The position numbers and the translations under genes were made by a program. This document shows positions 43,415 through 55,699 of a stretch of 64,000 bases of DNA, piece after piece. Numbering within the stretch: position 1 is the first letter of the stretch; each line of letters starts with the position of its first letter. Origin of the DNA: Escherichia coli (GTDB lineage: Bacteria; Pseudomonadota; Gammaproteobacteria; Enterobacterales; Enterobacteriaceae); the NCBI RefSeq assembly GCF_013315695.1, contig NZ_CP054353.1; one strand, written 5' to 3'. Under the pieces are notes generated by a model. That model did not search any database. It was not told the DNA's origin and saw only the letters and a program-made list of their open reading frames with translations.

Positions 43415-43819
43415 CTGATACGGTGTGGCGAAACATTCCAGCAGCGGTAACGATGTACCGCTGCTTTTTTTTGCCCCTATCGCGTGTTAACGCCTGACGA
43501 CTGAACATCCTGTCATGGTCAACAGTGGAAGGATGATGTCGTGCTTATCTTATTAGGTTACCTGGTTGTTCTCGGTACAGTTTTCGGCGGTTATTTGATG
43601 ACCGGTGGAAGCCTTGGAGCACTCTATCAACCCGCTGAACTGGTGATTATTGCCGGTGCAGGGATTGGGTCGTTTATCGTCGGCAATAATGGCAAAGCGA
43701 TTAAAGGCACGCTGAAGGCGCTGCCGTTGCTGTTTCGTCGCTCCAAATACACCAAAGCAATGTATATGGATCTGCTGGCTCTGCTTTATCGGTTGATGGC
43801 GAAATCGCGGCAGATGGGG

Positions 43820-45245
43820 TAATGCCAGTCAGTTAAGCAACTGACTGGCTCTTTTTCGGGGCTGTGGGGTATTTCCAGGGCCTCTCCTTTACCACTCTCG
43901 GGAAGGCCCTTTCCCTTCTTGTCGGTAATTTCACAAGTTGTCCCATACTTGCAAGATCGCGCATCAGCTCCGGTATACGTCCCGGTGAAGCGCCCTGCAA
44001 TGTCATCAGCATTCTCATCACCATTCCGCATGATTCTGAGAAACTCAGTTGATTCGGCCAGTAACCTTTCAGATGTTCCGCCATTTTAATCATCTGATAT
44101 CTCACCAGATTATAAGCCAGTAAGACACCCCACAGCTCTTGCTCCACAAGCTCCGGTTTTTTACTTCTCAGCGTCAGCCTGCTCAGTTGCATCGTCTGTT
44201 TTATCTCCCTGTATCCCAGTTCGATTTCCCAGCGATGACTGTACAGATCCGCCATTTCTCCTCCGGGGAAGCGCATGGCGTCCGTCATCGACGTCAGCAG
44301 ATGGCAGACTTTTCCTTTGCGCGTCACGGTCAGCAGGCGGGCTGTCACTTCATTTCCCAGTCCCGGCCACTTTTTTCGTGCCTGCGGGCTGGTTTTCAGC
44401 TTCACCAGATGATCGCCTTTACCCAGTTTTCTGATCTCTTCATATTGCGCTCCCTTTCTGAGAGGTATCATCCAGTGGCGGTGTTCTCCCGCCAGGCTCC
44501 AGGCATTTAACAGTCCCAGTGAGTAATAACCTTTATCCATTAACGTCAGAGTGTTATCGCCGGTTTGTTCTATAAGTTGCTCAGCAAGCTCATTTTCGCT
44601 GTTCTTCATCGTGCCGAAGGCTGCAGCCGTCAGCAGATGGCTGGTCAGTTCCATCTGGCAGACCATTTTGACCTGCGGGTAGAGCGCCGGGTTCCCGGCA
44701 TGTGTCTGGCGGGGGAAGGCTGCATCGTTCTCTGGTGTATCCGGTGTGCGCCAGAACACACCATCGATGGCCAGCAGGGTCAGGCCGCACCAGTGCGGAT
44801 GCGGCGTGGCGTTATGCCAGAGCTGCGCTGTTTTCGTGAACACGCGGCGGACAGCCTCACTTCCCAGGCGCTGGCGGGCCTGAATAACGGCACTGGGGGC
44901 AACGAAGGGGCGATTGCCCGGCAGCATGATGTCCAGGCGATTCACAATCTGGTGAAGAGGTTCTTTACGCTCAAGCGCCATGCCAACAATACACCAGACC
45001 ATCATTTCGAGGGGAAGACGGCGCTTGCGTAGCGTTACAGTACCTGATTCGGCAAGGCAACGAGAGATGAGTTCGGGGTCGAGGTAATCCCCCAGAGAAG
45101 TCAGTGGGTTACGCAGAGAATCGTAACGGGATACCAGATCAAGAGCCTGTCCAATGTGCATAAAAAAATCCGGAAACAAGTGAGCGTTTCCGGATTCTTA
45201 CACAGCCACTGGATCGGTCAACTGATCCTTAACTGATCGGCATTA
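43820..45245 (-). mobile_element. IS4 insertion sequence (1426 bp) with 12-bp target-site duplication
   Basis: Imperfect terminal IRs taatgccagtcagttaag / taatgccgatcagttaag; flanked by direct repeats cggcagatgggg at 43808-43819 and 45246-45257. Confidence 0.9.
43833..45161 (-). CDS. insG: IS4 transposase (DDE, InsG)
   Basis: 442 aa from [28 protein letters not shown]. Confidence 0.9.
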
Positions 45246-45862
45246 CGGCAGATGGGGATGTTTTCGCTGGAACGCGATATTGAAAATCCCCGTGAGAGTG
45301 AGATCTTCGCCAGCTACCCACGCATCCTTGCGGATAGCGTCATGCTTGAATTTATCGTCGATTATCTGCGCCTGATTATCAGTGGTCACATGAACACCTT
45401 CGAAATCGAAGCTCTGATGGATGAAGAGATTGAGACGCACGAAAGCGAGGCAGAAGTCCCGGCGAACAGTCTGGCGCTGGTCGGGGACTCACTTCCGGCG
45501 TTTGGTATTGTTGCGGCTGTAATGGGGGTCGTTCACGCGTTAGGTTCAGCCGATCGTCCTGCCGCCGAGCTGGGGGCGCTTATCGCTCATGCGATGGTGG
45601 GGACTTTCCTCGGTATTTTATTGGCTTACGGATTTATTTCCCCATTAGCGAGTGTTTTACGTCAGAAAAGCGCCGAAACCAGCAAAATGATGCAGTGCGT
45701 CAAAGTCACTCTGCTTTCAAATCTGAACGGTTACGCACCGCCTATCGCCGTTGAGTTTGGTCGCAAAACGCTCTATTCCAGCGAACGTCCGTCGTTTATT
45801 GAGCTGGAAGAGCATGTGCGTGCGGTGAAAAATCCGCAACAACAGACGACAACCGAGGAAGC

Positions 45863-49426: not shown

Positions 49427-51088
49427 ATGATTAACCGTATCCGCGTAGTCACGCTGTTGGTAATGGTGCTGGGGGTATTCGCACTGTTACAGCTTATTTC
49501 CGGCAGTCTGTTTTTTTCTTCCCTTCACCATAGCCAGAAGAGCTTTGTGGTTTCCAATAAATTACGGGAACAGCAGGGCGAGCTGACGTCAACATGGGAT
49601 TTAATGCTGCAAACGCGCATTAACCTGAGTCGTTCAGCGGTGCGGATGATGATGGATTCATCCAATCAGCAAAGTAATGCCAAAGTTGAATTGCTCGATA
49701 GTGCCAGGAAAACATTGGCCCAGGCCGCGACTCATTATAAAAAATTCAAAAGCATGGCACCGTTACCTGAAATGGTCGCTACCAGTCGTAATATTGATGA
49801 AAAATATAAAAACTATCACACAGCGTTAACTGAACTGATTGATTATCTTGATTATGGCAATACTGGAGCTTATTTCGCTCAGCCAACCCAGGGAATGCAA
49901 AATGCAATGGGCGAAGCGTTTGCTCAGTACGCCCTCAGCAGTGAAAAACTGTATCGCGATATCATCACTGACAACGCAGATGATTACCGATTTGCCCAGT
50001 GGCAACTGGCGGTTATCGCGCTGGTGGTGGTATTGATTCTGCTGGTGGCGTGGTACGGCATTCGCCGTATGTTGCTTACACCGCTGGCAAAAATTATTGC
50101 GCATATTCGCGAAATTGCCGGTGGTAACCTGGCGAATACCCTGACCATTGACGGGCGCAGTGAAATGGGCGACCTGGCGCAGAGTGTTTCACATATGCAA
50201 CGCTCTTTGACTGACACCGTCACTCATGTGCGCGAAGGTTCAGATGCCATCTATGCCGGTACCCGTGAAATTGCGGCGGGCAACACCGATCTTTCCTCCC
50301 GTACTGAACAGCAGGCATCCGCGCTGGAAGAAACTGCCGCCAGTATGGAGCAGCTCACCGCGACAGTGAAGCAAAACGCCGATAACGCCCGCCAGGCCTC
50401 GCAACTGGCGCAAAGTGCCTCCGACACCGCCCAGCACGGCGGCAAAGTGGTGGATGGCGTAGTGAAAACGATGCATGAGATCGCCGATAGTTCGAAGAAA
50501 ATTGCCGACATTATCAGCGTTATCGATGGTATTGCCTTCCAGACTAATATCCTCGCGCTGAATGCCGCTGTTGAAGCCGCGCGAGCGGGTGAACAGGGCC
50601 GTGGTTTTGCCGTGGTGGCGGGTGAAGTGCGTAATCTTGCCAGTCGCAGTGCACAGGCGGCAAAAGAGATCAAAGCCCTCATTGAAGACTCCGTCTCGCG
50701 CGTTGATACCGGTTCGGTGCTGGTCGAAAGCGCTGGGGAAACAATGAACAATATCGTCAATGCTGTCACTCGCGTGACTGACATTATGGGCGAGATTGCA
50801 TCAGCATCGGATGAACAGAGCCGTGGCATCGATCAAGTCGCATTGGCGGTTTCGGAAATGGATCGCGTCACGCAACAGAACGCATCGCTGGTGCAGGAAT
50901 CAGCTGCCGCCGCAGCTGCGCTGGAAGAACAGGCGAGTCGTTTAACGCAAGCGGTTTCCGCGTTCCGTCTGGCAGCCAGCCCACTCACCAATAAACCGCA
51001 AACACCATCCCGTCCTGCCAGTGAGCAACCACCGGCACAGCCACGACTGCGAATTGCTGAACAAGATCCAAACTGGGAAACATTTTGA
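49427..51088 (+). CDS. tar: Methyl-accepting chemotaxis protein II (aspartate receptor) Tar
   Basis: 553 aa from [23 protein letters not shown]-terminal NWETF pentapeptide. Confidence 0.95.
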
Positions 51089-51133
51089 CGAGTATTTACT
51101 AAAGCGGTCATTGCCGCCTGATGGGGAGCGTTG

Positions 51134-51360
51134 ATGTTTAATCGTATTCGAATTTCGACCACGCTGTTTTTAATTTTGATTCTCTGCGGGATCTTGCAGA
51201 TTGGCAGTAACGGCATGTCTTTTGGGCATTTCGCGACGATTTGCAACGACTGAATCAGGCCGACCATCTTTCGTCGCGTGTGGCGGTATTTACCCTTGAA
51301 GAACATGAAGTAGCACGACATGAGTCGGCGCAGTTACAAATTGCGCCAGTGGTATCCTGA
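51134..51360 (+). pseudogene. tap: tap (MCP IV, dipeptide receptor) remnant: N-terminal 30 codons, frameshift, and C-terminal ~30 codons joined by an internal deletion
   Basis: Begins MFNRIRISTTLFLILILCGILQIGSNGMSF then shifts frame; the 3' end encodes ...RVAVFTLEEHEVARHESAQLQIAPVVS* in another frame; expected gene is about 1.6 kb but only 227 bp is present. Confidence 0.75.
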
Positions 51361-51378
51361 AGTGATTGAGAAGGCGCT

Positions 51379-52239
51379 ATGACTTCATCTCTGCCCTGTG
51401 GGCAAACGTCTTTATTGTTACAGATGACCGAGCGCCTGGCGCTTTCCGACGCGCATTTTCGGCGGATAAGTCAATTGATCTATCAACGCGCCGGGATCGT
51501 TCTGGCTGACCATAAACGCGACATGGTTTACAACCGACTGGTTCGTCGTTTGCGTGCGCTGGGACTGGCGGATTTCGGTCATTACCTGAACTTGCTGGAA
51601 TCTAATCAGCACAGCGGTGAGTGGCAGGCGTTTATCAATTCGCTGACCACGAATCTGACGGCATTTTTCCGTGAGGCACACCATTTTCCTCTGCTCGCGG
51701 ATCACGCACGTCGCCGTTCTGGCGAGTATCGCGTATGGAGCGCGGCGGCTTCGACCGGCGAAGAGCCGTACAGCATTGCGATGACACTGGCTGACACATT
51801 GGGCACCGCGCCCGGACGCTGGAAAGTGTTTGCCAGCGACATTGACACCGAAGTGCTGGAAAAAGCCAGAAGCGGTATTTATCGCCATGAAGAGTTGAAA
51901 AATCTGACGCCGCAGCAACTGCAGCGGTACTTCATGCGAGGGACGGGACCGCATCAAGGGCTGGTACGCGTGCGTCAGGAATTGGCGAATTATGTTGATT
52001 TTGCCCCGCTGAATTTACTGGCGAAACAGTACACCGTGCCGGGGCCGTTTGATGCGATCTTCTGTCGTAACGTCATGATCTACTTCGATCAAACTACCCA
52101 GCAGGAGATTTTGCGCCGCTTTGTTCCGCTCCTTAAACCCGACGGATTGCTGTTTGCGGGTCACTCTGAAAACTTTAGCCACCTTGAGCGCCGCTTCACG
52201 CTGCGTGGTCAGACGGTGTATGCGCTAAGTAAGGATTAA
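51379..52239 (+). CDS. cheR: Chemotaxis methyltransferase CheR
   Basis: 286-aa ORF. Confidence 0.95.
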
Positions 52240-54558: not shown

Positions 54559-55593
54559 GTGTCTGACGAGATCGACGACAAAACAGAAGCCCCCACACCT
54601 CACCGACTAGAAAAAGCGCGGGAAGAGGGGCAAATCCCGCGTTCCCGTGAACTGACTTCACTGCTGATTTTGCTGGTGGGCGTTAGTGTTATCTGGTTTG
54701 GCGGTGTGGCGCTGGCCCGTCGATTGTCGGGCATGCTCTCCGCAGGGCTGCATTTTGATCACAGTATTATCAATGACCCGAATCTGATCCTCGGGCAGAT
54801 TATTCTGCTGATCAGAGAAGCCATGCTGGCGCTGTTACCGCTGATTAGCGGCGTGGTGCTGGTGGCGATTATTTCTCCGGTTATGTTGGGGGGGCTGGTA
54901 TTTAGTGGAAAATCCTTGCAGCCGAAGTTTTCCAAACTCAACCCGCTACCGGGCATTAAACGGATGTTCTCGGCACAGACTGGCGCGGAGTTGCTTAAGG
55001 CAATTTTGAAAACCATCCTGGTTGGCAGCGTGACGGGGTTTTTTCTCTGGCATCACTGGCCGCAGATGATGCGCTTAATGGCCGAGTCTCCGATTACCGC
55101 CATGGGTAATGCGATGGATCTGGTAGGGCTATGCGCGCTGCTGGTGGTGCTTGGTGTCATTCCAATGGTGGGATTTGACGTCTTTTTCCAAATCTTCAGC
55201 CACCTGAAAAAGCTGCGAATGTCACGGCAGGATATTCGTGATGAGTTCAAACAAAGCGAAGGCGACCCCCATGTTAAAGGGCGGATCCGTCAGATGCAGC
55301 GAGCGGCCGCACGGCGTCGGATGATGGCCGATGTGCCGAAAGCGGATGTCATTGTCAATAACCCGACCCACTATTCGGTAGCGTTGCAGTATGACGAAAA
55401 CAAAATGAGCGCACCGAAAGTGGTCGCTAAAGGTGCAGGGCTGGTCGCGCTGCGCATTCGTGAAATTGGCGCTGAAAATAACGTCCCGACGCTTGAAGCG
55501 CCGCCGCTGGCGCGTGCGCTGTATCGACATGCGGAGATCGGTCAACAAATCCCGGGTCAACTGTACGCCGCGGTGGCGGAAGTGCTGGCCTGA
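54559..55593 (+). CDS. flhB: Flagellar export switch protein FlhB, terminated early by a TGA at 55591-55593 (344 aa instead of about 382)
   Basis: GTG start, (M)SDEIDDKTEAPTPHRLEKAREEGQIPR; after the TGA the same frame stays open for 37 more codons and ends at the TAA that overlaps the flhA ATG. Confidence 0.85.
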   Translation: MSDEIDDKTEAPTPHRLEKAREEGQIPRSRELTSLLILLVGVSVIWFGGVALARRLSGMLSAGLHFDHSIINDPNLILGQIILLIREAMLALLPLISGVVLVAIISPVMLGGLVFSGKSLQPKFSKLNPLPGIKRMFSAQTGAELLKAILKTILVGSVTGFFLWHHWPQMMRLMAESPITAMGNAMDLVGLCALLVVLGVIPMVGFDVFFQIFSHLKKLRMSRQDIRDEFKQSEGDPHVKGRIRQMQRAAARRRMMADVPKADVIVNNPTHYSVALQYDENKMSAPKVVAKGAGLVALRIREIGAENNVPTLEAPPLARALYRHAEIGQQIPGQLYAAVAEVLA

Positions 55594-55699
55594 GTCTGGC
55601 AACTGAAACGCTGGCGTCTGGCTGGTGGACAACGCCCTGTACAACCTACTCATCTTCCGGTGCCGGAAGCCCTGGATTTTATTAACGAGAAACCGACCC

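Follow-up and report, generated by a model that had tools for sequence, protein, structure and literature searches.

The 227-bp segment at positions 51134-51360 of the Escherichia coli DNA analysed here (a stretch of 64,000 nucleotides, referred to below as the window) is, with a probability of about 0.93, a non-functional relic of tap, the gene for the dipeptide/pyrimidine receptor (MCP IV), in the form found in phylogroup B2 and made by two lesions. In view of its distribution across genomes and of the published loss of Tap, it is the already known tap pseudogene allele that is fixed in phylogroup B2, a lineage making up roughly one in five complete E. coli genomes, and not a new event. The additions made here are descriptive and concern the in-frame size of the deletion, the 13/15 match of the repeat at its ends, the existence of two variant junctions, and the order in which the lesions probably arose.

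The region corresponds to the E. coli cluster flhDC-motAB-cheAW-tar-(tap)-cheRBYZ-flhBAE, where the tar-tap-cheRBYZ transcription unit has tar as its upstream gene. On the plus strand, tar (49428..51088) is intact according to the list of open reading frames (ORFs), with 553 aa and the C-terminal NWETF, and the identical stretch in strain MS 21-1 is labelled tar by the annotation pipeline PGAP; cheR (51379..52239, plus strand) is likewise intact according to the ORF list and PGAP. The relic sits between the tar stop codon at 51088 and the cheR ATG at 51379, the operon position of Tap. An initial annotation had described a 227-bp tap remnant here, surrounded by intact tar, cheR, cheB, cheY, and cheZ. 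Base-level comparison confirms the remnant, and all of these neighbours are full length in the ORF list (tar 553 aa, cheR 286, cheB 349, cheY 129, cheZ 214). A scan of positions 50900-51500 found no promoter-like or terminator-like sites, and an Rfam scan of the stub returned no match. The ribosome-binding sequence of cheR, GAGAAGG (51368-51374, plus strand), is untouched because it lies downstream of the tap stop codon.

Alignment with the intact 1,602-bp tap of a K-12-like genome (L002, strain TUM1509) divides the relic into two arms. The left arm (51134-51259) is tap nt 1-127 less one T, the right arm (51252-51360) is tap nt 1494-1602 except for one SNP at 51329 (C vs T in K-12, Val to Ala), and tap nt 128-1493 are missing from the window. 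Relative to full-length tap, 1,374 bp (458 codons) are absent, and the arithmetic closes (1602 - 1374 - 1 = 227); the initial estimate of about 1.4 kb of missing coding sequence, including the ligand-binding, HAMP, and signalling domains, is thereby made exact. This alignment, which had been proposed as a check, yields an internal deletion and a separate 1-bp loss, with no colinearity between the window and full-length tap. The 1-bp loss falls in a run of four Ts at 51220-51223 (plus strand, placed by alignment), one T below the T5 of tap nt 87-91, as had been suspected. The 5′ remnant ORF (51134..51253, plus strand; sequence, ORF list, and alignment) starts at ATG 51134, encodes MFNRIRISTTLFLILILCGILQIGSNGMSF followed by GHFATICND, and ends at a TGA at 51251-51253. 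Its length of 39 codons is that first reported, and comprises the native start and 30 native Tap residues (signal-anchor/TM1) followed by nine out-of-frame residues. The 3′ remnant (51260..51360, plus strand; ORF list and alignment) contains codons 501-533 and the stop codon, out of frame with the start codon; the Tap C-terminus (...NQADHLSSRVAVFTLEEHEVARHESAQLQIAPVVS, then stop) is indeed readable, though in another frame, and 18 bp separate its end at 51360 from the cheR ATG. The 1,374-bp deletion by itself is in frame and would join Gln42 to Ala501, giving a 75-residue product. As the 458-codon deletion preserves the frame, the frameshift comes solely from the T run, and the change from T5 to T4 is the only cause of the frameshift and of the stop after 39 codons.

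The two arms overlap by the 8-bp sequence GAATCAGG, which occurs in intact tap at nt 120-127 and 1494-1501 (codons 40-43 and 498-501). Slipped mispairing or annealing between short direct repeats is recognised by two copies of a repeat in the intact gene, of which the junction keeps one, and by a deleted length equal to the spacing of the copies, and this is the arrangement found: the spacing is 1,374 bp, and the arm overlap leaves a single copy of the perfect repeat at 51252..51259 (plus strand). The initial annotation had placed the junction at a heptamer, aatcagg (51253-51259), with copies near codon 45 and near the 3′ end of the gene; a short direct repeat in two copies is there, but it is the 8 bp at 51252-51259 and not 7, and its codons are those given above. 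GAATCAGG is in turn the perfect core of an imperfect 15-mer, GAATCAGG[T/C]CGA[G/C]CA, matching at 13/15 positions, of which intact tap carries GAATCAGGTCGAGCA as the left copy and GAATCAGGCCGACCA as the right copy. In the window, the 15-mer at 51252..51266 (plus strand; carrier comparison) is GAATCAGGCCGACCA, designated the R form of the imperfect repeat, and at its two variable positions it has the bases of the right-hand copy. The arms abut with their 8-bp overlap, and the alignment contains no foreign, IS, mobile-element, or filler DNA at the tap junction. A microhomology-mediated deletion, as originally suggested, is supported by the retention of one of two repeat copies without foreign DNA.

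Comparison with protein families gives no sign of a working receptor. The NCBIfam Tap equivalog NF007309 has 533 positions and a cut-off of 903 bits, and the matches of the two relic ORFs are confined to profile positions 1-33 and 496-533 (E about 1e-15 to 1e-16), with fragment scores of 58.7 bits (residues 1-33) and 57.8 bits vs that cut-off. Chance resemblance to Tap is not a concern. Functional Tap would be expected as an ORF of about 533 codons scoring above 903 bits; the longest in-frame product in the relic is 39 aa, and the periplasmic ligand-binding domain, TM2, HAMP, methylation helices, and signalling hairpin of functional Tap are absent. The sensing and signalling domains are deleted, and no receptor can be made. 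A product resembling Tls, a truncated Trg found in B2 strains (PMC12623472), would combine a translatable N-terminus with a cytoplasmic signalling fragment, and the relic has no signalling-domain sequence left.

The sequence suggests how the allele may have arisen and what it may entail. The T5 homopolymer at codons 29-31 would have lost one T by replication slippage, shifting the frame so that translation would end after 39 codons. In the other lesion, 1,374 bp would have been lost between the short direct repeats, either by slipped mispairing or by single-strand annealing, and the one repeat copy remaining at the junction is the signature of such a short-homology deletion. Transcription from the tar promoter would continue into cheRBYZ, and cheR would be translated from its own GAGAAGG sequence; transcription should still reach cheRBYZ because the stub is without a terminator-like site and cheR has a ribosome-binding site of its own. 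In E. coli with intact tap, Tap mediates taxis to dipeptides (via DppA) and to pyrimidines. Loss of Tap-mediated taxis is the expected phenotype of the relic.

A colinear arrangement of tar, stub, and cheR is shared by 1,058 of 5,426 complete E. coli genomes (identity 99.2-100%), and the other complete genomes with a match carry full-length tap. Many carriers match a 131-bp probe spanning the T run and the junction at 100% identity. PGAP labels the stub as a pseudogene, "frameshifted; incomplete". Carriers identified by name include Nissle 1917, UM146, SE15, ST131, LF82, NRG 857C, APEC O18, and the type strain DSM 30083, all of which we take to belong to phylogroup B2. Over 24 kb, the genomes closest to the window are MSB1_4I and MS 21-1 (99.9-100%), with LF82 and NRG 857C at 99.4%, and the flanks of the relic in the window are B2-type and identical to those of MSB1_4I and MS 21-1. 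Absence of Tap from such strains has been described before. The uropathogenic E. coli (UPEC) strain CFT073 encodes just tsr, tar, and aer, and UPEC strains have commonly lost Trg and Tap (PMC3559539). Similarly, Tap has been lost from B2 strains, in which a truncated trg encodes the functional regulator Tls (PMC12623472), and tap was absent in 36/66 bladder isolates (PMC7500147). Both PMC3559539 and PMC12623472 credit the loss of Tap to Lane et al. 2006 (J Bacteriol 188:5618) and Borziak et al. 2013; the two citing papers speak of Tap as "completely lost" and describe neither a 227-bp stub nor a repeat nor a pair of junction variants. Set against the published B2/UPEC loss, the window shows the same gene, lineage, and outcome, and nothing is biologically different; functional tap is missing from B2 strains, which retain tar, tsr, and aer.

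Other lesions lie near the cluster. In the window, motA is split after codon 93 by an IS4 element of 1,426 bp (43820-45245) that has terminal inverted repeats and is bordered by a 12-bp target duplication, CGGCAGATGGGG (43808-43819 and 45246-45257); its transposase ORF (43833-45179, minus strand) scores 304 bits on NF033592. The insertion is not in the closest genome, MSB1_4I, and apparently in no other complete genome, because a 24-kb query matched no complete E. coli genome colinearly at high identity. The flhB gene (54559-55707) has TGG changed to TGA at 55591-55593, codon 345 of 382 (W345*), a stop shared with MSB1_4I, where PGAP records an internal stop; flhB is intact in MS 21-1. This stop removes the C-terminal 38 residues, and its effect on flagellar export is uncertain because no more than those 38 residues is lost. 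The window strain is probably non-motile, and an assay of dipeptide taxis, which the initial annotation had suggested, would probably be uninformative in this strain because of motA::IS4 and the premature flhB stop. Further downstream, K-12, CD45, and HCM-22C-2 have a segment of about 730 bp containing yecT-yecV that is absent from the B2 genomes examined, including the window. There a 52-bp spacer (58171-58222 in the window) with the hairpin AAAAAAGCCGATGTCTGCAATGACATCGGCT takes its place between flhE and argS. The lineage thus differs in structure at a second site close to the chemotaxis genes.

Two forms of the tap junction are found in B2. The R form, that of the window, occurs in about 920 genomes and the L form in about 135, including SE15 and some ST131, these figures being approximate since the band counts take in a few short partial matches. 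The L form keeps the bases of the left copy, GAATCAGGTCGAGCA and then TCTT, which puts its crossover 3′ of the 15-mer and not inside the 8-mer; in strain AREA_R505 (L004, 1465-1691), for example, the junction reads GAATCAGGTCGAGCATCTT vs GAATCAGGCCGACCATCTT in the window. Mixed junctions, with a crossover between the two mismatches, do not exist among the carriers. T4 is found in both the R and the L forms; just 7 of the 1,058 deletion carriers lack it, and none of the 4,322 full-length tap genes of complete genomes contains it. Because re-creation of one form from the other by two point changes is improbable, the likeliest origin of the two forms is either two independent deletions in an already frameshifted tap or a single single-strand-annealing event in which a heteroduplex with two mismatches segregated. 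After the deletion, the second repeat copy is no longer there as a template. The frameshift probably preceded the deletion, because both B2 junction variants carry T4.

A metagenome scan yielded one contig that fits a frameshifted but undeleted tap, OLHG01000032.1 (L015, 814-1494). It has T4, an undeleted tap stretch of at least 681 nt, and a B2-type flank identical to that of the L-type B2 strain AREA_R505. Compared with the lineage of HCM-22C-2 (tap+), this contig has 10 differences at positions -606 to -30 and one over tap nt 1-681 (Fisher p = 0.06), and its affinity switches between -30 and +187 of tap, a stretch common to B2 and tap+ strains. It may be a genuine intermediate or an assembly chimera; the latter is suggested because the switch from B2-type to tap+ falls exactly across the shared stretch. 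As proof of a frameshift without deletion the contig was not accepted, and with a chimera possible it serves only as a hint.

The distribution of the deletion bears on whether the repeat might be a hotspot that fires repeatedly, even recently outside B2, which would make the window allele one of many such events. The two crossover products within B2 are in keeping with this, as are some of the carriers with T5. T5 is found in 7 deletion carriers, three of them B2 (FCI5, FCI23, FCI29) and four with non-B2 flanks (Z1323CEC0015, L016; EcN_Sk, L018; HH45, L021; HH97, L023), and for three of the latter four the nearest relatives by flank sequence have intact tap. However, comparisons over 20-40 kb showed these four assemblies to be chimeric or unreliable, and fresh recurrent deletions outside B2 were dropped as an explanation. 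EcN_Sk has K-12 SNPs over 40 kb on the large-scale structure of Nissle (no IS1 at flhD, no yecT/yecV, the B2-specific flhE-argS spacer, and the Nissle prophage junction). Z1323CEC0015 is 99.98% identical to CD45 in its SNPs, yet is B2-like at both large B2-specific indels and keeps the B2-specific flhE-argS spacer verbatim. HH45 and HH97, which come from one study, have the tap deletion, lack yecT-yecV, and carry noisy, unalignable filler at flhE-argS. All four most plausibly represent chimeric or mixed assemblies and not natural recurrences, which leaves just the two B2 variants in support of a hotspot, and the window allele itself lies in the B2-type flanks that it shares with MSB1_4I and MS 21-1; a repeatedly firing hotspot is accordingly considered unlikely. 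An origin of the deletion in sequencing or assembly error, or in a mutation private to this isolate, deserves hardly any weight: homopolymer lengths and collapsed repeats are common sources of error, and some public assemblies are demonstrably faulty at this locus, but the identical junction and T4 recur in more than 1,000 complete genomes that many laboratories sequenced independently and with many technologies, which refutes it. Virtually no probability attaches either to unequal crossing-over between the signalling domains of tar and tap, as in laboratory tar-tap fusions. These tandem paralogues do share about 630 bp at about 75% identity; however, tar is complete down to the NWETF of its own C-terminus, neither the tar-tap intergenic region nor the tap N-terminus is missing, and the alignment refutes such an exchange by placing both end points within tap at the 8-bp repeat.

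A different question is whether the stub might be kept for a function, for example as a 39-residue TM1 small membrane protein or through an effect on cheR spacing or translation level. Several observations would fit: the native tap start codon and upstream region are preserved, the stub has equal length in all 1,058 carriers, few SNPs occur in a small sample, and the trg "pseudogene" of B2 is a functional precedent (PMC12623472). However, the stub is without the cytoplasmic signalling fragment retained in Tls, 9/39 of its residues are frameshift junk, no RNA family or promoter-like site occurs in it, and the cheR ribosome-binding site lies outside it, while uniform length is expected from common descent alone. 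The SNP comparison, in which six B2 haplotypes show 1 SNP and 2 junction variants in the 227 bp of stub against 24-49 segregating third-codon positions per kb of flank, is low in power and biased, as it uses a tiny, non-random sample and flanks with recombination imports. Constraint on the stub was rejected as a conclusion from these diversity figures, the comparison being under-powered and biased, and no other result of the analysis speaks for a maintained function. On balance a retained function would be very improbable, and we attach equally little credence to a scenario that links the stub to the two junction forms, in which an ancestral frameshift was followed by at least two independent removals at the imperfect repeat (R and L) and the stub has since been conserved. 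If that scenario were true, it would mean selection for removing the frameshifted body or for keeping the stub, and in the latter case the target could be a TM1 mini-peptide or the tar-cheR spacing, parallel to the path from the B2 trg relic to Tls. The preferred reading remains a non-functional B2 relic produced by the T loss and the 1,374-bp deletion.

Z1323CEC0015, EcN_Sk, HH45, and HH97 are RefSeq "complete genomes" in which the SNPs of one lineage sit on a structure that does not fit them. In the three B2 carriers with T5, FCI5, FCI23, and FCI29 (L011-L013, from one study; position about 1551), the fifth T restores a 75-codon in-frame mini-ORF, and FCI5 shows no other difference from Nissle 1917 over 2.8 kb. 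Here T5 is either a homopolymer polishing error or real back-slippage, and these three genomes were left out of the argument. Chimeric RefSeq records, and maybe a metagenome contig, can imitate recurrent mutation or evolutionary intermediates, and caution is needed with both.

The relic can be set beside other known systems. The classic hotspots of spontaneous deletion between short direct repeats in lacI were reportedly those of Farabaugh, Albertini, and Miller. Like the lacI hotspot deletions, the tap deletion ends in short, partly imperfect repeats, keeps one copy, and has nothing inserted, and alternative crossover positions in its imperfect repeat give different junctions. Unlike those hotspots, which were selected in the laboratory, the tap deletion is fixed in a natural lineage. 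In Salmonella enterica, the mocha/meche cluster is functional with cheR directly after tar, and no tap relic is expected there; unlike in that species, the tap relic described here proves secondary loss. Tls is likewise a chemoreceptor truncated in the same lineage and was long annotated as a pseudogene, and it combines a retained part of the cytoplasmic signalling domain with a new peptide at the N-terminus and has a demonstrated regulatory function (PMC12623472). Unlike Tls, the tap stub has just TM1 and the last 33 codons, in different frames.

Overall, the tap relic is a textbook case of pseudogene decay, with an in-frame 1,374-bp deletion, a separate slip in a T run, and two junction variants. 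Loss of Tap is a recognised trait of B2 and extraintestinal pathogenic E. coli (ExPEC), and the relic has little import beyond correct annotation. The stub is nonetheless a convenient lineage marker, and could serve as a phylogenetic character within B2.
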